From contig JBEWZL010000244.1 of the NCBI GenBank assembly GCA_045837725.1, positions 124,001 to 188,000 on the forward strand: a stretch of DNA of 64,000 bases. The letters are read 5' to 3'. Positions within the stretch are counted from its first letter, which is position 1. Each line of letters opens with the position of its first letter. The notes beneath the pieces are model-generated. The model was not told where the DNA came from. It made no database searches and worked only from the letters and a program-made list of their open reading frames with translations. The position numbers were made by a program, and so were the translations under genes. Source of the stretch: Vermamoeba vermiformis (Eukaryota). Positions 23,401-47,158 of the stretch are shown here, piece after piece.

Positions 23401-23802
23401 ATTAAATGCACTTTCATTGGGTGCATTGATTAACGTGTTTGTCGAACAAATACCGCATTGACAAGGGAAGTTATCCAGCACAAATAGGTCTTGGTCGAAC
23501 TCTGCGTTAAATACTGCTGCTTTATATTCTACTCCTGTGATGGTTGCGGTTTTGATCTGCGGATGTGACGGATGTGTACGTTAGAATAACTTCCTAAAAT
23601 TCAATTTTATGTTTTGCATCGAACGATTTAATACCTGATACGTCGAGGAGGTAGGTTTAGGAGGGTCTATAAAATATTAGCCAATTAATACTTAAGATTT
23701 TTAATTTTCTTTCGTAGGTCGCCGACCAATAGATGTACCTGTTTGTACGGCAGCTATTAAAGCTAATAGCGCAATCAATGTTACGCTACCACAATAATTC
23801 AT
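17432..23802 (-). CDS. Giant Cys-rich ectodomain + TOM1/GPR137-like 7TM receptor, copy 2 (tandem paralog)
   Basis: Collinear with 8741-15168. Many ORF fragments are near-identical (e.g. 18381-18563 vs 9728-9910; 22292-22654 vs 13633-14007). Signal peptide MNYCGSVTLIALLALIAAV. Confidence 0.75.
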
Positions 23803-24087
23803 ATTTTGGCTTTGTGGTATTCATTTACGGTTGGCGCTGATCTAATCAAAAAAAAAATATTAAACTTTTTGGACCGAGTTTTCCCGTGGTCCAAAGATGG
23901 ATAAACTCCTAAAATCGGCGAGATAGATGGCTTGTTCGTATCTTTAAATACTTTCTCTGGTACCCTACTTAAAGAGGTAGATCTGGTATTCCAAATCCCA
24001 CAAGCTCGATATCAGATCTGGATCACAATTTCCCTTTAGAAACCCACTAATCCCTAACCCCGCGTTCATTTTTTTATAATTTAGGAG

Positions 24088-24249
24088 GCGCAGACGTGCG
24101 CGAGCGCAACATCCGCACTAACAAAAATTGTGACAGGGACAACACCATACGGTGAAGCCCAACCGATGTCGCACTCCGAGTGCAAGAGGAGCGCAACGAC
24201 CGACCTAGAGATGCCTTCTTGATCACATCTCTACTGTCCAGGTAAGTAT
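24088..24249 (-). ncRNA. U1: U1 spliceosomal snRNA
   Basis: Minus strand begins ATACTTACCTGG (complement of the 5' splice site). Stem-loop I has loop GATCAAGAAG (U1-70K site) and stem-loop II has TTGCACT (U1A site). Sm site AATTTTTGT, terminal GC-rich hairpin, ~162 nt. Confidence 0.95.
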
Positions 24250-24605
24250 GAACTACTACGGTGTTCGAATTGCTATTTTCTGCAAGATCCGAGCAAAAAA
24301 TTTTGTGGGAGAGGTTGCACGTTGGGAAAATTATCATCAATCTACTTATTCTGAACGCCACACAACAAAAGAACAAGGCAAACACCCTTACAATAAATCC
24401 TATGATTCATAATCCAGCTCAATTATTTTTTTGCTTGGATTGAGTTTGCTTTACAATCGGCTGGAACTGCCCGTAGCCATTTACCGTGATTAAATTTTAT
24501 CCATTTTCTTTTAGATATTCGTCCGTAAATTGGAACAACATAATCGTTCATTTCTCTCGGCTCCGAAGTGATATTAATATATTAATTTAATTTTATCCAA
24601 TTGAA

Positions 24606-27600
24606 ATGGAGAACAACCGCAATTCAGATTATCTTGGAGATGACGTAGAAAGGTGGTACCCTAAATTGAAGGATTACACCTTCAATACATTGATTATGGA
24701 ACTGAATTTGGCGACGGCTAAAGCGATTATAAACCGTTATGAAAAAAGAGAGACAGAAGGCGATAATAAATTGCTGGCAAAGGTAAATTACGAATAAATA
24801 GACCGTGCAATATTGGGATCATTATGAAAACATTGATTATTATTTTGTAATTTAATTACTCGAGCAGTTGGAGGAAGATATCGATGTCCTAATGAGCAAA
24901 TTAGAGTCTAAGAAAGCATTCGTTAGATTATCCACTCGCAGGTAAGGCAGATCCGCCACAAAAGGAAATTAATATAACGTATGTCTTAGTCCCAAAGATT
25001 ACGCTCTAAGAACAGCAAAAACCAAAAAGATATTATCAGAATTATTGCAAAATATTGAAGAAGGTGATGAAGTTAACGAGGTAAGCAAATTAATTTTCAA
25101 CCACGAGATCTGCTCGTTAAAATGGCACGAACTATTTATTTTTCATTTCCACCTGACAACGAGGACAATTACATTTAAATCCGTATTGATCTAGTCGCTT
25201 TTGTCGATCTTCTTGCGGCGCATCTACTTCCACGTACGAGCTAAAAACCTCCTCGCCCTTGGCGATGTCCTCTGACAATAACACGTTATTTAAATACTCG
25301 CCCATTATTATATATGAATATATGCACCTACTTATAGCGAATACTTGCAAATAGTACGAATCTCTATTGTTGTCAATGCGCGCGTTCGGAGTGCAACTGT
25401 GATTGAGACAGCTGTGCAATGTGAACAGACCACTGCCGTCTGGACACCACATTGTGAGAACATCGCGACCTTGTGCTAGAATTATGTAATGGTTAGACTA
25501 AGAGCTACGATGTCACTGCACGAAAATGTATCCAAAGGTTGATCCCGAGATCCAGCTCAGATCCGGTTCAACTTCACATACAAACTTCAATATTGCGTAA
25601 ATCAATATCTAGTACTCACCCATGAAGAGCTCGTCAAACTCATTGAGCAGTTTGAAGCCAAGAGTATGAATCTCTTTGTTCGGGTTTGCCTTCAAGTTGT
25701 CCACGTAAATATTCAGTGCATTCGTCGCGTTTATAATAATGTTCTGTTGATTGGTGATAATAATAGAGGCCATTCGTTTAATACACTCTGGCGAAGTATC
25801 TAAGTGGGAAACGGGTCAGATCCGTTCGATTTTCCTTCTCACAGATTTTCACTTACCAACAGAGTCCGCAATGTTTTTGCCAGAGACGAGCTCTATTATC
25901 TGTCCTATAATACGACTGAGCTCTTCAAAGAGTCCTAAATGTCCTTCATCGAAGCCAAGATCCGGTTGAAAAGCGAAATAGCCTAATTTAGTATACACAT
26001 CTTGATCTTGCGGTCCCTGATCGATGACATATCGTGCTTGTTCAAAAATCAATTTGACGATCAATTCCATCGCCATCACGGGAAATTTCTCTCCCCAAAC
26101 ACTGTAACATCAAGTGTCAGTCCATATCATTAGCAAATATATGCACGTACTCTTTGATCATATCAAACTCGTTATATAGTGTCATTAACGTTTGATTATC
26201 TTTGTGAGTTGTTTTGCAAATGAAATTATGATAATTTTTGCGATGCGTGTCATGACATTGTTCGCTGCAATAGTGGTCGTCTTCACATTGCAAATTGGCC
26301 TTGTTATTATTTGTCTTTGTATTGTCAATGCCGAGTAGCTTAGGATCCAATCGATTTAAGTCCGGTAAAGTGAATAGTGGTGATGATTCCTAATATGGAA
26401 AGTGAGTCCGCACATCAATTATTAATCTCCGTTCTACTCACTCTGTGTCGTATGAATTTCATGCAATTGCTACACGATATTACATAGGGCTAATATTAAT
26501 AAGAACAATTAGTAACTGAGAAGTAGGAACAAGATCCAGATCTCGCGTACTTTGTTGATCGGGAAGGGAGAAGATGTCACAGGCTTTTCTTCGAAAACAA
26601 GCTCGTTCTTCTTAATGTTAGTCTTAGCAAATACTCCTTTCCCGCGCTTCTCGTCAATGAACTTGATCTCGATTGGCCACTTCAGAGGCGAAAAATATTT
26701 CTAAAATTACGGAAACGTTATAAAATCGTCCACATATTCATATTATGAACGGTAAAATTATTTATAATTTTATTTAATTTTTCTACCTGGATTTGAAGTG
26801 GATCAGCTTTTGTCTTGATTTTGTGATAGCTTCTTTGGCTTGTTAATCGTTTGTTCCATATCCTCATATAAGATCTCGAATATGAACGAAGGCTATTAGC
26901 TAAAAACATACTTTTGTTGTTGCTCGATTGCTTGTCAACTGTAATTACTAATAATGAAACGTGTAGATAATAGCGATTATTCAAACCATGTCTTATTGCC
27001 TGCAAATGACCTCTGGAAAAGAAGCTGTCGAATTTATGATCAACAGCGAACGAGTTTATCAAGGTAAGCGGAGACGATCTGCATCTAAACTGGCAAAACT
27101 AACCAGCCATCCCTAGATCTGAGCGTTCGAATTTTGGAAACAGAAGAAGATACATTCAATATGAAAGTTATCATCCGCGAGTGGGTTGATATTCGACCTG
27201 AACTTGAATTCAGAGGCTTTTTCAATAACAAACAATTTAACGCCTTGACACAGGTACGTAGCAACTTCATTATTATACTGAACTAACTTATATATCTTTA
27301 GTATTATAAAGCTTGTTATGTTCCTGAAATCGCTCAAAGAAAAGATGAAATTGCTAAGCTGATCCAAGAGCTTCTACGACAAAATCAAAGACTTGATCGA
27401 GATGAACTCATTCGTCGCTGATTTTGCTGTAGTTGGCACTAAGGTCTATTTAGTCGAGTTAAATACTTTCGGACCGACTGCTAGTCCGAGTTTGTTCGAC
27501 TGGAAAGTTGACAGTCAAGTCATGCACAACGGTACAAAATTAAACGGTTAATACTTACTATACTAACTATTTATTATAGGACCATTTGAATTTAGAGTCG

Positions 27601-27761
27601 TTATGCAGCCCTATCAAAACGGCAAGAGTTTGATTGCACGACCACTGCGCCAATTGATGTCTGAATTTAGATCTGACTGGCAAGACAAACCAAAAGAAGA
27701 AGATCATAGTAGCGATAATAAAGAGAAGAAAAAGGATAAGAAAGATTGCATTGTACAGTAG
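24606..27761 (+). CDS. CDC123/D123-like ATP-grasp protein with C-terminal CaaX; 1.9-kb intron and an apparent +1 frameshift
   Basis: Exons ~24606-24782, 24868-24941, 24990-25080, 26967-27063, 27117-27253, 27302-27531, 27580-27761. Motifs FVRLSTRSPKD, SERVYQD, IREWVDIRPELEFRGF, ALTQY, VELNTFG...LFDW. Ends KEKKKDKKDCIVQ*. Confidence 0.82.
25132..26909 (-). CDS. SET and MYND domain (SMYD-like) lysine methyltransferase, nested in the CDC123-like intron
   Basis: SET-N KRGKGVFAKTNIKKNELVFEEKP; MYND-like CSNC...YCSEQC...HNFIC; SET-C GLFTLHSCLNHSCTPNA, DIAKGEEVFSSY; post-SET YGFKCNCPRC. Multi-exon. Confidence 0.88.
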
Positions 27762-27792
27762 TAAAAGGAAGTTGATAAGTAATTTTAATTTC

Positions 27793-29045
27793 CTAATATG
27801 GAAATTCTCGTTCAGGAATCGTGGACATATCTGCAAACTTATTCTCGAGATTATACTTAAAAGAATACTTGGGCGTAAATCCGAGAATTCTTTGCGCCTT
27901 TTCGGAGACGTAGACGCGATCGATCGAGTTGAACATTGTCCACCCCAGCTCTTTGTATACCTGTTCGTATTCAGGATAATACTTTGCCACAACAGCTGCT
28001 GCATTGTTAAGCAATTCTTTTCTGTCTTCAGGCTTGAACGGCGTAGGTCCGCTGATGATAAATACATCGTACGAAATTGACTCGATGACATTCAACGCGT
28101 CAATGTGTGCTTGGACCATATCACGATAATCAGCTCTATAGATAATAATAGTATAAGCACCATAGTGTTGAAGAAGAATGTATAGTATTACCTTCTAAAT
28201 AAGAGCTCATTCCCTTTCAAATTGGCACTGGGAAAAGTGACATCGAAATCGTCTTCCGCAAAGAACCGTGAGACCCGCAACACTGATAAGTAGGTAATTT
28301 ATCAGTACTATGCTTTTGTTTATGCACATAGCATACTTACCAATGACATGCAAACGATGAAGTTCAGCGTAAAGTTTGCACAAATTTTCAGCCGCAATTT
28401 TCGTGACGCCATAAATGTTTTTGGTAATCGGAACTACCTCCTCTGTGATCCAACTAGCGCCTGTATTATCGAAAATAAGCTCCTATCAATAAACGAGCAA
28501 AGTAGCTTGAAATATACCTTCAGAGTTGTCCGTCAATGCGTGGCCGAAAACTGAAGTCGTCGAAGTAAAAATGAACTTTCTAACGTTATTTTTGCGAGCA
28601 TTTTCCAAGAGGTTAAGCGTGCCTAATAAAAGGAGATTAAAATCAAAAGAGATACTCCGATCTAGATTTTATTACCTGTTACATTGACGTCAATAAAGCG
28701 TTGGATAGGTACTAGCTCGATATGAGGTCGATGCAATGCAGCTGTATGTATAACAGCATCGAATTGGTTGTCGCGAAAGCACTCTAAAAGAAAATGTGTC
28801 AACTTTTTTTTCTAATCCAGATCCCAAAACCCCACCCAACTTTTAATTCGAAATAATATCGCAAAATTTGCCATTCTTTGTTGCATACCTTCTACTGCAC
28901 TTGCGTTGGAAATATCAACAACCTGATCAACTGTCGTGTGCGATCTCTGATCTATTCCGATTACATTGTGGCCCAGCTCCTTCAGCTTCATATAAAGGTG
29001 AGTCCCTAGATAACCTGCACTGCCAGTAAGCAAAATCTTCGTCAT
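27793..29045 (-). CDS. NAD-dependent epimerase/dehydratase (SDR)
   Basis: KILLTGSAGYLG, VIHTAALH, FIFTSTTS, catalytic YGVTK, LRVSRFF, KAQRILGFTPKY. Confidence 0.88.
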
Positions 29046-29233
29046 TGTTGTGGTGTTCTATTGGGGTGTGAATCGCAATTGAGGTTTGCAATCTAGGGCG
29101 GAACTTTCTTTACAAGCAAGCCACCAGAACTTCTCAAAAACCCTCTAAAGAATCTTATGAAATTAATCAAAGCATTACTAATGGCTTAAAACCTTTTTAA
29201 TTAAGAGTGGATCTAGACACGCCAGTCGAACAC

Positions 29234-44469: not shown

Positions 44470-47158
44470 TTAAGGAGTTGGGTCATCTGTTACTCGAGTT
44501 GCATCTGGAGACTTCCTAGGGGACACATTTTGTGGTGTCGTAATGTCAATCATTTTGATGAATCCTTCAACGTGTGGCGGAATATACAGCGTGTCAATCA
44601 ACGAGAATAACTTATTTTCATCGATGTCCTGACAGAACAGCGCGTTAGGGTCGATACGTACGAGAAATAATGAACAGTACCTGAGGCAGATGGCCCAAAA
44701 GATTAAGACACTCTTCAAAGGATCGCAACAGCAGGGTAGATTCAAAGTACTTCAGTATCGCTGTAAAAAGGACTGTTACTACCATATTAAAACGATGTAT
44801 GGATACCGAGCAAAAAAAAAGAAATTGGATTCGCAGGGTTTCGATCCCCGTACCTCCCGCATGCTAAGCGGACGTGCTACCAAGTGCACCACGAACCCGT
44901 TAGTTGTCCGAGCCGTTGAAAAAACAAGGTGTCACCCAGTTCGCACGCAGATAAGGTGTTTTTTGTTTACGCAGCTTACCTAACGCTGTAAAATGGATGA
45001 AAATCTCTCCTTCTATCAGATAACAGTCCCATACTCTGCTAGCGATTGGTGGCTTGAGTTGCTTGATGAACAGGGTGAGATACCTGTTATCGAGGCCGAA
45101 TTAGTCTGCGCGTTCACAGAGTGTTTGCTGACGTACCAATCCAGTAGATAATGTTCATTGGAGATGCCCAATGATCGAAAATGTCTGTAGAGTTGCGGTA
45201 GTTGTTCTGCAAACAAAATTTCGAAGATTCTGAAGTGTTTGGAAATCTGTGCTAGGTCGACGTGGTACATCGACGACAAGAAGTGCGAGTCGAGTAAGTT
45301 GTACAATACGATAAACGCATCAGCCTCTTGTAAGTACATGAGAAGCAATCCTGCAAGATAGGACATGCCTTGCACCTGTAGTGTTCGTGTGAGCGATTGC
45401 ATTTCGGCGGGTATTATACACTTACATAGCCTATGTCTGGCTTGGCGCGTGCAAGGGCAATGAGAACTGACATGATCTCGTCGTAGGACTTGCTGCTTGG
45501 TTCCTTAAAGACCGTCAGGTCACTGAACGTGCGAGGCAAATCTAAGTCGATAAAGGATTTCAACTCTGCAATTGTACGTTGCTGCTGTTGAATTAGTTGC
45601 TTCAGTTGTTCGTTATCCAATGTCAGGATCTTTTGACGAGGTGATTTCACTGTAATTTCAGGTACGGTTCCTTCGGGAACAGGCTGATGGGCATGATTAA
45701 CTCACATTCGAAGTAAAAATACAATCATTGTACCTGTGGGTTTTCTTCGGCCTTGGGCTCTTCGTCTTGCTTTTGTTTCAGTTCTAAAAGAAGTTTAATA
45801 GGGTTCTTCTCCAAGTGTACGGAGACGATGGCCTCTTGAACATTGTCTTCGGATCGCAGCTGTTTATAGAATTCGGGTGTGACGTTCAATTTGTTGCCAA
45901 CGATTTGACGCCACAAAATAGCTCTGAACTTGGCTGGAATTCCTCTTCGCCACAATGCCTTTGCATTCGGTTGTTCAGTCCATGAAGCATCGAGATTGCT
46001 GAACACTTCGTTGATCCATCGTTCTTCGTACGCTTTTTGCTCATACGAAGCGTTGGGTCTACAAAGAGATAAATAAGCGACTATTCTTACCGCATGACTA
46101 TGCTACGTACCTGTAATACGGAGTTTCGACCCAGTGATTGAATCGAGCGTAATAATCTTTGATTAAATGTGAGGCTGTAATCTCCAATGGGAATTCTAAG
46201 CCTTCTCGTTCTTCAGCGGGCAACACGTCAACTAAATCTTGAGCGATTCTGATCACGTGCTTCAACTTTTCATTGGCCATGTCAATCGACTTTCTCGCAG
46301 CAGTAACTTTGTATGACACGTGTTAATAATAAAACGCGAATAGTCATATTATGGCGTGCTTACTTTCCGTCAATTGAGTCTCGAAGGTTTGCATATTGTT
46401 CATCATTGTATTCACCGCGTTTAACATTTCATTAACAGTGTCTTCGGTGTCAAGAACTCTGTTCGTTAATTTGTCCTAATGACAGTTAGTCGGTGTTATA
46501 TACCCTAGTATCGTAGTAAAAGAAGCATTCTTGCAGCACGTACCTGTTTGCTAGCAACGTCCTGACTGAGTGCCTTCAATTTGTTTTGATAGTACAAAAA
46601 CATGGTCAATAATGGCTTCTCGCTCGGGCAGACTAACAATAGTTAATATTGCGCACGTAATAAATGTAATTATTGACGTACTAATGCCACCCCGATTTGG
46701 CAATGGTCTGCCGTTTGGAAATAGATGTTTTGTTTCTTTATTATAGACTAATGGGAGTGTCTATAAATTAAAGTAATTAATCACGGTATTATTCTATTGT
46801 TACGTACGATTTGAAGTGATTCGATAGCTTTCAATTCAGGTTCTGTTTGTTCAATCATTTTGGGAACATTTACCTATGGATTTAATTAATTAAGCACACT
46901 ACATGTATTAAATAATATTTGAGATAGTTAAATTATACAACACAGACAATATTTGACATTTTCCTTAATATTTGGATAATATCTTCTAATTGCAAGCAAT
47001 AATTACCGAAACAATGCCAGGGTCTTTCATATTTTTTTGTGCAAAATTATCTTTGGAATAAGACGTGTATTGCACGTCGGAAGTTAGCCAATCCTTAATT
47101 TTGGGATCGAGCTCATCTGGGATTCTCTGTTGTGGTTCATTTGTTATAACAGCTCCAT
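44470..47158 (-). CDS. TBC-domain Rab GTPase-activating protein
   Basis: GIPAKFRAILW, IDLDLPRTF (Arg finger), IGYVQGMSYLAGLLL (Gln finger), RVWDCY. Many short introns. Confidence 0.9.
44826..44898 (-). tRNA. tRNA-Ala(AGC), intronic
   Basis: GGGTTCGTGGTGCACTTGGTAGCACGTCCGCTTAGCATGCGGGAGGTACGGGGATCGAAACCCTGCGAATCCA: 73-nt cloverleaf, G3:U70 Ala identity pair, anticodon AGC. Followed by a T9 Pol III terminator (44812-44820). Confidence 0.96.

Follow-up and report, generated by a model that had tools for sequence, protein, structure and literature searches.

A SMYD-like SET gene probably nested antisense within intron 3 of a CDC123 gene of Vermamoeba vermiformis

How is a CDC123-like reading frame to be understood that ends at a splice donor and resumes in phase 1886 nt further on, with a gene on the opposite strand lying between the two halves? 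This question is raised by a stretch of 64,000 nucleotides of Vermamoeba vermiformis DNA (the window; all positions refer to it). The reading favoured here, with a probability of roughly 0.8, is that the two genes form a genuine nested pair in a compact genome with short introns: an eight-exon SET gene is located antisense in intron 3 of CDC123. The gene model derived from the sequence gives the CDC123/D123 gene seven exons on the + strand, from 24606 to 27761:

24606..24782, + strand: CDC123-like exon 1; ATG at 24606; N-terminal alignment with full-length CDC123 proteins of amoebozoans; no Pfam match by itself
24868..24941, + strand: CDC123-like exon 2; in frame with GT-AG borders; start of FVRLSTRSPKD, compared with FVKLSTRS(A/P)KD in relatives
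24990..25080, + strand: CDC123-like exon 3; ends in phase 0, followed by a GTAAGC donor
25081..26966, + strand: host intron 3; 1886 nt; donor GTAAGC, branch-like TACTAAT at 26946-26952, acceptor TAG
26967..27063, + strand: CDC123-like exon 4; IIAIIQ...SERVYQ; from the gene model and alignment with relatives
27117..27253, + strand: CDC123-like exon 5; ExR motif LEFRGF; Pfam D123 match; reads in all three RNA runs
27302..27531, + strand: CDC123-like exon 6; FVADF and LVELNTFG; one extra base at ~27370
27580..27761, + strand: CDC123-like exon 7; stop TAG at 27759-27761; C-terminus (...CIVQ) aligns with relatives

Exons 1-3 together measure 342 nt, or 114 codons. Unspliced read-through of exon 3 would add 37 residues before a stop (ORF 24973-25194), and exon 4 has no possible upstream extension, since the acceptor TAG at 26966 is itself an in-frame stop (ORF 26967-27116). 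The frame resumes in exon 4 with IIAIIQTMSYCLQMTSGKEAVEFMINSERVYQ; the following D, and then LEFRGF, are found in exon 5. The branch A of intron 3 lies at 26951, 15 nt before the 3' end, and host introns 3-6 share their type of donor and a branch spacing of 13-15 nt. All introns of CDC123 and of the SET gene are GT-AG, with phases consistent throughout both models. In size, however, intron 3 differs from the other host introns, which measure 85, 48, 53, 48 and 48 nt. A crude window-wide scan for donor, branch and acceptor with open frames on both sides placed 45 of 107 candidate introns at 40-75 nt, and the same scan yielded 1-5 on each of ten mononucleotide shuffles. The size contrast between intron 3 and the short introns exceeds chance. 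The original prediction had the CDC123-like frame stopping at a phase-0 GTAAG donor at 25081, in a 1886-nt intron standing out against short typical ones, and both claims are borne out by the exon 3 border and by the 48-85 nt of the other host introns. A convergent epimerase gene is found next door, with its stop 31 nt beyond that of CDC123.

The identity of the host gene was examined at the protein level. From end to end (residues 9-303 or 13-328), the spliced model could be aligned with complete amoebozoan CDC123 proteins, at identities of 45.8% over 310 aa (P0005), 47.5% over 301 aa (P0006), 42.9% over 354 aa (P0007) and 41.9% over 320 aa (P0004, which carries the name 'Cell division cycle protein 123'). 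The Pfam D123 profile matched exon 5 (E 9e-6, 25.5 bits against a cut-off of 24) and, just below the cut-off, the part of exon 6 that follows a frameshift (6b; E 7.6e-5, 22.4 bits). The other three host exons tested as single-exon queries gave no D123 match, and a protein word search with exon 1 ('longer' mode) gave no match at E <= 0.001. Structures available for comparison are human CDC123 8phd, as well as 4zgn, 4zgo, 4zgp and 4zgq; the relatives P0003 (E 2.5e-13) and P0006 (E 1.1e-8) match 8phd.

Proteins of the R2K clade of ATP-grasp proteins, to which CDC123/D123 belongs, have been described as having a strand-2 Lys with a second K/R, an ExR motif, an Asp and a (D/E)xN motif, among which K104, D233 and D246xN248 in the human protein (PMC4431377). 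In a transitive alignment (window to P0006 to 8phd) all these residues were found in the host: the strand-2 K/R and the second K (FVRLSTRSPKD) in exons 2-3, and EFR, the D of FVADF and ELN in exons 5-6. Unlike human CDC123, the host protein has an Arg at the position of K104, a conservative change that is also seen in 3 of 8 aligned relatives (P0004, P0005, P0011). Assignment of the predicted host protein to CDC123/D123 (PF07065) is supported; full-length collinearity with amoebozoan CDC123s and all R2K features are shared. Because the ATP-grasp residues lie on either side of the nest, splicing of intron 3 would be needed for a working CDC123. CDC123 is essential in yeast. It is an ATP-grasp factor for eIF2 assembly (PMC8844851; PMC12860950) that binds eIF2-gamma and promotes this assembly (PMC8844851; PMC4431377), a role that may apply to the host protein. 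Ligase activity of CDC123 is presented in PMC4431377 as a prediction only. The earlier description of the locus as encoding two predicted protein-modifying enzymes, an ATP-grasp ligase and a lysine methyltransferase, thus holds for the gene identities and overstates the label.

At the 25080/26967 junction, between E114 and I115, the alignment with 8 relatives is free of gaps. Where the window has GDEVNE followed by IIAIIQ, P0003 (54% identity over 178 aa) reads DDEILQIIAIIR. This alignment and the sequence itself agree with the claim of the original prediction that the frame resumes in phase after TACTAAT...GTGTAG (26966) with SERVYQD and EFRGF. A donor a few codons away would be compatible with homology alone, since the region just upstream of the junction is a loop of variable length in the alignment. 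From the sequence we infer that 25080 would be spliced to 26967 as one intron. Three RNA runs with the same species label, from a strain 90-95% alike, contributed 27-34 seemingly unstranded reads each when mapped at 92% likeness. No reads spanned 25080/26967 and none fell on exons 1-4 in the three runs, a blank that is uninformative at this strain distance. The exon 4-5 join appeared in the related-strain RNA as a loose end at 27115 (run X12, 7 reads), the exon 4 part of which carries 4 synonymous differences and unchanged amino acids, and the exon 5-6 join as loose ends at 27237 (10 reads in X11 and 4 in X12). In host exon 5, all 8 listed differences between the RNA strain and the window are at codon position 3.

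The gene between the two halves lies wholly within the host intron (25081-26966). It is read on the - strand from an ATG at 26907-26909 to a stop TAG at 25132-25134, and its eight exons form an ORF of 1269 nt, complete from ATG to stop (422 aa plus stop). The seven introns, all GT-AG, measure 86, 61, 52, 49, 57, 144 and 60 nt. The start must be supplied by exon 1, because exon 2 lacks Met.

26787..26909, - strand: SET exon 1; second ATG at 26867-26865; basic, Ser/Arg-rich N-terminus of 41 residues
26551..26700, - strand: SET exon 2; start of the SET domain; Pfam SET profile 1-24, E 0.012, below cut-off
26442..26489, - strand: SET exon 3; CSNC, first Cys pair of a MYND-like finger, motif read by eye
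26151..26389, - strand: SET exon 4; remainder of the MYND-like finger; zf-MYND below cut-off
25857..26101, - strand: SET exon 5; middle region from the gene model; no Pfam and no Atlas match
25620..25799, - strand: SET exon 6; middle region from the gene model; no Pfam match
25332..25475, - strand: SET exon 7; GLFTLHSCLNHSCTPN; Pfam SET E 1.2e-5 on ORF 25135-25497
25132..25271, - strand: SET exon 8; GEEVFSSY and post-SET CNCPRC; aligned to SMYD2 224-274, E 7.4e-8

NHSxxPN and ELxxxY are the names of two SET motifs. The nested protein contains LNHSCTPN and GEEVFSSY, which align to SMYD2 (NHSC(C/T)PN), and its C-terminal part matched Pfam SET (PF00856) with 26.1 bits against a cut-off of 22.4. 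For the last SET ORF all 27 PDB matches were SMYD1, SMYD2 or SMYD3 and 29 of 30 Atlas matches were SET-domain clusters; a protein word search with this terminal ORF ('longer' mode) gave no match at E <= 0.001, and exon 2 or exon 4 alone gave chance-level PDB matches. The zf-MYND match is confined to profile positions 16-39 (E 0.014; 15.9 bits, with a cut-off of 22.7). The first CxxC of the finger is located one exon earlier, 31 residues before the next Cys, and one Cys pair of the usual MYND pattern is not evident by eye. Of the earlier SET/MYND label, the SET part stands, with Pfam and SMYD2/3/1 matches, and the MYND part is weak.

As in SMYD2 (3s7b), SMYD3 (5xxd) and SMYD1 (3n71), the SET domain of the nested protein is split by a Cys-rich insert. 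SMYD2 residues 195-215 and 224-274 align with its NHSCxPN, GEEVxxSY and post-SET CxCxxC, with KCNCPRC opposite TCECQEC in the post-SET cluster. The nested protein, however, ends 8 residues past this cluster, whereas the SMYD1-3 chains (423-490 residues) run on for ~150 residues that form their C-terminal helical (TPR-like) domain. It also differs from the SMYDs in its 41-residue basic N-terminal extension, in ~140 residues (exons 5-6) with no family match and in its partial, sub-threshold MYND match. The predicted protein is filed as a SMYD-like SET methyltransferase and not as a SMYD, because the C-terminal helical domain is missing. By composition and intron type the gene looks native: GC3 is 0.44 compared with 0.40 in the host, codon counts of the two genes correlate at 0.75, and their introns are of one type.

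The original prediction, of a multi-exon antisense SET gene filling almost the entire intron with its stop ~50 nt from the donor and its ATG ~57 nt from the acceptor, is matched by the model; the ATG-to-stop span takes up 1778 of 1886 nt and leaves two short flanks:

25081..25131, no strand: 51-nt flank from the host donor to the SET stop; the SET 3' end must lie in it or next to it
26910..26966, no strand: 57-nt flank from the SET ATG to the host acceptor; contains the host branch site

A candidate poly(A) signal for the SET gene is a minus-strand AATAAA (25135-25140) immediately ahead of the SET stop. With flanks of only 51 and 57 nt, the geometry implies that the SET promoter and 5' UTR would have to overlap the 57-nt flank and host exon 4 onwards. 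Under the favoured reading of a nested gene pair, host intron 3 would have grown to 1886 nt because it houses a complete, independently transcribed eight-exon gene on the opposite strand. The host pre-mRNA would be transcribed through the antisense SET gene. Splicing would then excise all 1886 nt as a single, ordinary GT-AG intron whose branch site is TACTAAT, so that I115 follows E114. The SET gene would be transcribed from its own promoter, overlapping host exon 4 onwards, and its transcript would end in or near the 51-nt flank.

Both genes are under sequence constraint. All 7 substitutions found in the SET span in contigs of DNA run X1, as well as 1 indel, fall in predicted SET introns 2 and 7, in two clusters. 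A few unstranded RNA reads were found on SET exons 4, 6 and 7, with exon 7 covered in all three runs and exon 4 in X11; of the 3 differences listed for exon 4 (X11), two affect the third codon position and one the second. The nest is also physically contiguous in the read-derived contigs: X1 contig pieces 24849-25275 and 26835-27008 span both of its edges with 0 differences to the window, a comparison that is not fully independent, as X1 may be the sample used for the assembly.

It could be added to the nested-pair reading that the arrangement is functional, CDC123 and the SET gene being reciprocally regulated by transcriptional interference, as put forward in the original prediction, or by sense/antisense pairing. 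The geometry is compatible with this (flanks of 51 and 57 nt, overlap of the SET promoter, a host polymerase that crosses the whole SET gene), and transcriptional interference between host and nested genes has been documented in mammals (PMC3192792). However, the genome is compact anyway, as the convergent epimerase gene shows, so that dense spacing does not set the CDC123/SET pair apart. Such regulation is considered unlikely. A more far-reaching proposal, decidedly unlikely, would make the nest a conserved regulatory unit, in which antisense SET transcription, by way of the 5' overlap with CDC123 exon 4 onwards, and host transcription over all of the SET gene balance an eIF2 assembly factor against a methyltransferase perhaps acting on the translation machinery; in its bolder variant a gene-bearing segment would have created the intron.

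It was also considered whether the SET gene has disrupted CDC123, the halves of which would be expressed separately (gene fission) or decay as a pseudogene. The absence of the 25080/26967 junction and of exon 1-4 reads from the RNA of a strain 90-95% alike would agree with this, as would a frameshift, absent from the original prediction, caused by an extra base in the window at ~27370 in host exon 6. However, an X1 contig omits this base at full depth (733.4/733.4), and the relatives P0001 and P0002 are uninterrupted across the site (KLIQDFYDKIKD and KLIQDFYNNIKD, respectively). Being missing from the X1 contig and from these close relatives, the frameshift probably reflects an indel of the assembly. 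Use of another acceptor, at 27312, was tried as an explanation and rejected; the resulting frame stops within 17 codons. Further points argue against a broken gene: exon 3 ends at a consensus donor and not at a stop, exon 4 does not begin with a start codon and the acceptor TAG blocks its frame upstream, phase and collinearity are exact over the junction, and the ATP-grasp residues are shared out between both halves. The 8 differences of the related strain are all at synonymous positions, and no second CDC123 copy is found within the window. A broken CDC123 is therefore very unlikely.

Highly improbable, too, is the creation of a new intron by a SET-bearing segment that landed in CDC123 coding sequence, in place of an insertion into an older short intron, the origin put forward in the original prediction. 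This idea draws on P0003, an uninterrupted 196-aa product from JGI contigs of up to 150 kb that is 54% identical to the host protein. P0003 is continuous through the sites of introns 3, 4 and 5 and diverges exactly at the start of intron 6, as expected of an intron-unaware gene call on DNA of presumably genomic origin. Since P0003 reads straight through, its source seems to have no intron at the nest site. The same pattern is explained by loss of introns 3-5 in that source, however, and donor, branch and acceptor of intron 3 resemble those of the neighbouring old introns. The SET gene is bordered by neither a target-site duplication nor terminal repeats; all repeats found are short and at chance level. 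Those around the nest form 21 direct and 21 inverted families (12-30 nt, imperfect), all of them away from the two flanks, and a transposon-like insertion is thus not indicated. Two metagenome scans and a viral-contig scan yielded no orthologous DNA of the locus. A locus from the genome-contig scan (L001) was rejected as a chance match; it is bacterial, has 62.5% GC and has only SPSLFDWKV in common.

Misplacement of the SET gene between two CDC123 parts during assembly is scarcely credible: the window and the X1 contigs differ by 1-nt indels (27068, 27370, 27787) and one X1 contig leaves the window sequence after 26775, yet X1 pieces cross both nest edges without differences and splice signals and phase fit exactly. 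The divergent contig departs within SET intron 1 and continues for >250 letters found nowhere in the window; neither of the X1 loose-end consensus strings is present in the window at <=3 mismatches. In view of this divergence, the SET 5' end may be structurally different in a second haplotype.

If confirmed by RNA, the nested pair would be a clear-cut instance of an intron-rich gene within the intron of another. Nests of this kind should seldom occur in a lineage with very short introns and should face strong constraint on splicing, and intron 3 is ~35-fold oversized. For annotation the locus holds two warnings: a limit on intron length would split CDC123 into two false genes, and the gene would be wrongly called a pseudogene owing to the probable assembly indel of 1 nt in exon 6.

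Nested intronic genes are well known, and the CDC123/SET nest is a tidy but ordinary example. Their reported numbers range from 158 intronic nested protein-coding genes in human up to nearly 800 in Drosophila (PMC3325483). Drosophila timeless2, for example, carries 2mit in its intron 11, read in the opposite direction (PMC3786989). Nested genes and interference between host and nested gene are already established in animals, and no new question is opened here; searches of the literature on nested genes of Amoebozoa and protists brought up no title on such cases in Amoebozoa. The geometry of the CDC123/SET pair is compatible with the host/nested interference of mammals (PMC3192792), a likeness of geometry alone. 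As in animal cases such as 2mit, a whole protein-coding gene, presumably with its own promoter, occupies one intron on the opposite strand. In contrast to the animal nested genes, the pair is found in a genome with introns of ~45-70 nt, the nested gene leaves hardly any of the host intron free, and this SET gene itself has seven introns.

The region 23800-28400 was inspected on both strands, and its stop-to-stop reading frames were assembled into two scripted gene models, one for a CDC123/D123 gene (the host) and one for a SMYD-like SET gene:

24606-24782, plus strand, host exon 1
24868-24941, plus strand, host exon 2
24990-25080, plus strand, host exon 3
26967-27063, plus strand, host exon 4
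27117-27253, plus strand, host exon 5
27302-27531, plus strand, host exon 6
27580-27761, plus strand, host exon 7
26909-26787, minus strand, SET exon 1
26700-26551, minus strand, SET exon 2
26489-26442, minus strand, SET exon 3
26389-26151, minus strand, SET exon 4
26101-25857, minus strand, SET exon 5
25799-25620, minus strand, SET exon 6
25475-25332, minus strand, SET exon 7
25271-25132, minus strand, SET exon 8

The original prediction had placed a SET gene antisense within a host intron, and its coordinates and motifs all proved correct against both strands and the gene models. The six host introns measure 85, 48, 1886, 53, 48 and 48 nt in the model. The SET gene lies entirely within the third, its span from ATG to stop taking up 1778 of the 1886 nt, with 51 nt between host donor and SET stop codon and 57 nt between SET ATG and host acceptor. 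Its 422-aa product is read in an unbroken frame over seven introns (86, 61, 52, 49, 57, 144 and 60 nt), all GT-AG.

Host intron 3 is exceptional in length, the other 12 of the 13 introns of both genes being 48-144 nt. A window-wide scan, which asked for donor, branch-like and acceptor signals and for 25 open codons on either side, found 45 of 107 intron candidates at 40-75 nt, against 1-5 in each of ten shuffles; the scan is crude, the shuffles being mononucleotide and candidates above 75 nt mostly background. The signals of intron 3 are of the same kind as those of its neighbours: the donor is GTAAGC, and the branch A of TACTAAT lies 15 nt from the 3' end, compared to 13-15 nt in host introns 4-6.

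Pfam D123 matched single-exon translations of host exon 5 (E 9e-6) and the second part of exon 6 (E 7.6e-5), and three other host exons searched singly gave no Pfam match. A word search with exon 6 retrieved three proteins: P0001 (87%) and P0002 (91%), close relatives from read assemblies, and P0003, a JGI protein of 196 aa. With P0003 as query, an exhaustive phmmer search yielded 2164 proteins at E <= 0.001. The spliced host protein aligned over nearly its entire length with the best full-length relatives, namely P0005 (45.8% over 310 aa), P0006 (47.5% over 301 aa), P0007 (42.9% over 354 aa) and P0004 (41.9% over 320 aa). The three named full-length relatives are all from Amoebozoa (Flabellula baltica, Ceratiomyxa fruticulosa and Planoprotostelium fungivorum), that of P. 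fungivorum carrying the name 'Cell division cycle protein 123'; the source of the window is thus probably an amoebozoan as well. Human CDC123 structure 8phd was matched by P0003 and P0006.

The predicted 25080/26967 junction agrees with homology. E114, which ends exon 3, and I115, which opens exon 4, adjoin without a gap in the multiple alignment, and P0003 has DDEILQIIAIIR opposite the join GDEVNE/IIAIIQ. Since a length-variable loop lies just upstream, homology places the junction only within a few residues. Exon 3 contains no stop, unspliced read-through adding 37 residues before one is met, and the TAG of the acceptor itself closes exon 4 upstream. Furthermore, the nest divides the R2K ATP-grasp features, as given in PMC4431377: in the alignment the K/R pair (FVRLSTRSPKD) falls in exons 2-3 and ExR, D and ExN (EFR, FVADF, ELN) in exons 5-6, on the other side. 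The stop-free exon 3, the closed exon 4 and the divided ATP-grasp features together suggest that the host halves have to be joined.

None of the runs indexed as RNA contains the stretch; three raw RNA-seq runs under the same species label were mapped at 92% likeness. Each gave 27-34 reads, mostly 90-95% alike, indicating that the RNA came from a diverged strain. At this likeness no reads from that strain lay on host exons 1-4 in the three runs, and no joint was seen. Loose read ends at 27115 (run X12, 7 reads) correspond, apart from four synonymous changes, to the exon 4 end, and those at 27237 (run X11, 10 reads; X12, 4 reads) to the start of exon 6, which shows that host introns 4 and 5 are spliced in the RNA strain. 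A few reads fell on SET exons 4, 6 and 7. All 8 listed differences from this strain in host exon 5 are at third codon positions, as are 2 of 3 in SET exon 4.

In the DNA run X1, contig pieces 24849-25275 and 26835-27008 bridge the nest edges with zero differences. The window may itself derive from the X1 sample, and thus an assembler error is better excluded than a sample-specific arrangement. Across the SET span, minor-haplotype differences comprise 7 substitutions and 1 insertion and form two clusters, every one lying in predicted SET introns 2 and 7. One X1 contig leaves the window after 26775, in SET intron 1, with ~255 letters absent from the window, which may be a haplotype indel. Another, at 27776, matches to one side only and carries ~255 further absent letters; both divergences may reflect a second-haplotype indel or rearrangement.

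The original prediction, sound in its motifs and coordinates, overlooked a frameshift in host exon 6, where one surplus window base at ~27370 breaks the frame after KLIQE. A 698-letter X1 contig (26979-27678) omits one base at 27370 at full depth (733.4/733.4), and P0001 (KLIQDFYDKIKD) and P0002 (KLIQDFYNNIKD) are unbroken across the site. Single bases are likewise missing from X1 at 27068 (depth 733.4/733.4) and 27787 (603/614.6). The three extra bases are attributed to insertion errors in the window assembly, or to strain differences, rather than to pseudogenisation; insertion-type assembly errors could yield false pseudogenes elsewhere. Separately, X1 shows a 3-nt in-frame deletion at 27738 in part of its depth (521.6/920.1), so that the Lys-rich C-terminal tail of CDC123 is polymorphic in length. 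An X1 contig over 24424-24685 lacks 9, 3 and 3 bases at 24539, 24550 and 24558, in AT-rich sequence just upstream of the CDC123 ATG, which points to length variation in a putative promoter or 5' UTR.

Pfam SET matched SET exon 2 with the start of the profile (E 0.012) and the ORF of exons 7-8 with its end (E 1.2e-5); zf-MYND matched exon 4 weakly (E 0.014), and exons 5 and 6 had no Pfam match. All 27 PDB matches of the terminal ORF were SMYD2, SMYD3 or SMYD1 (best E 7.4e-8), and the Atlas features listed SET in 29 of 30 matches. NHSC-PN, GEEVF-SY and the post-SET CxCxxC align with SMYD structures. Unlike in SMYD proteins, the ORF stops 8 codons past the post-SET cluster and the C-terminal domain is absent; the gene is therefore termed SMYD-like rather than a SMYD. 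Residues 1-41 (26787-26909, minus strand) are basic and rich in Ser and Arg, the first acidic residue coming no earlier than position 36, and by eye resemble an organelle-targeting presequence. Composition and codon use are similar to those of the host (GC3 0.44 compared to 0.40; r = 0.75), no repeats were found flanking the gene and no second copy within the 64-kb window. It appears to be resident in this genome rather than recently acquired from a foreign source.

Host transcription would cross the antisense SET gene, the 1886 nt then being removed as one intron, and SET would be transcribed from its own promoter. With 57 nt between its ATG and the acceptor, this promoter would have to overlap host exon 4 and beyond. 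AATAAA (25135-25140, minus strand) immediately precedes the SET stop and, if used, would end the transcript within the 51-nt flank. As to origin, insertion into a short intron had been proposed. P0003, which appears to be an intron-unaware call from a long genomic contig, shows no interruption where window introns 3-5 lie and departs exactly at intron 6; given this read-through, its source probably has no intron at the nest site. Such a site would fit either intron loss in that relative or intron creation here.

The genome is compact even apart from the nest. Convergent with CDC123 lies a multi-exon gene for an NAD-dependent epimerase/dehydratase (27793-29057, minus strand), in which 2 of the 4 ORFs searched matched Pfam PF01370. 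Only 31 nt separate the two stop codons (27761, 27793), which leaves room for no more than very short 3' ends unless these overlap. On the other side of the host, ~360 nt before the CDC123 ATG and antisense to it, is a full-length U1 spliceosomal snRNA gene (24089-24249, minus strand; Rfam RF00003, 78.4 bits against a gathering score of 69.5, model positions 1-166). A tRNA-Ala (AGC) gene lies at 44826-44898 (minus strand).

A literature search, judged on paper titles, gave no nested-gene cases in Amoebozoa or protists. Nested intronic genes are well documented, mostly on the opposite strand, 158 being counted in human and nearly 800 in Drosophila; according to a review, they mostly have their own promoters and an expression unlike that of the host (PMC3325483). 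Intronic genes make up about 6% of Drosophila genes (PMC3786989), and interference between host and nested gene has already been studied (PMC3192792). The coupling by transcriptional interference suggested for this locus is possible, judging from geometry. The nest is real and neatly built, and this kind of arrangement is already known.
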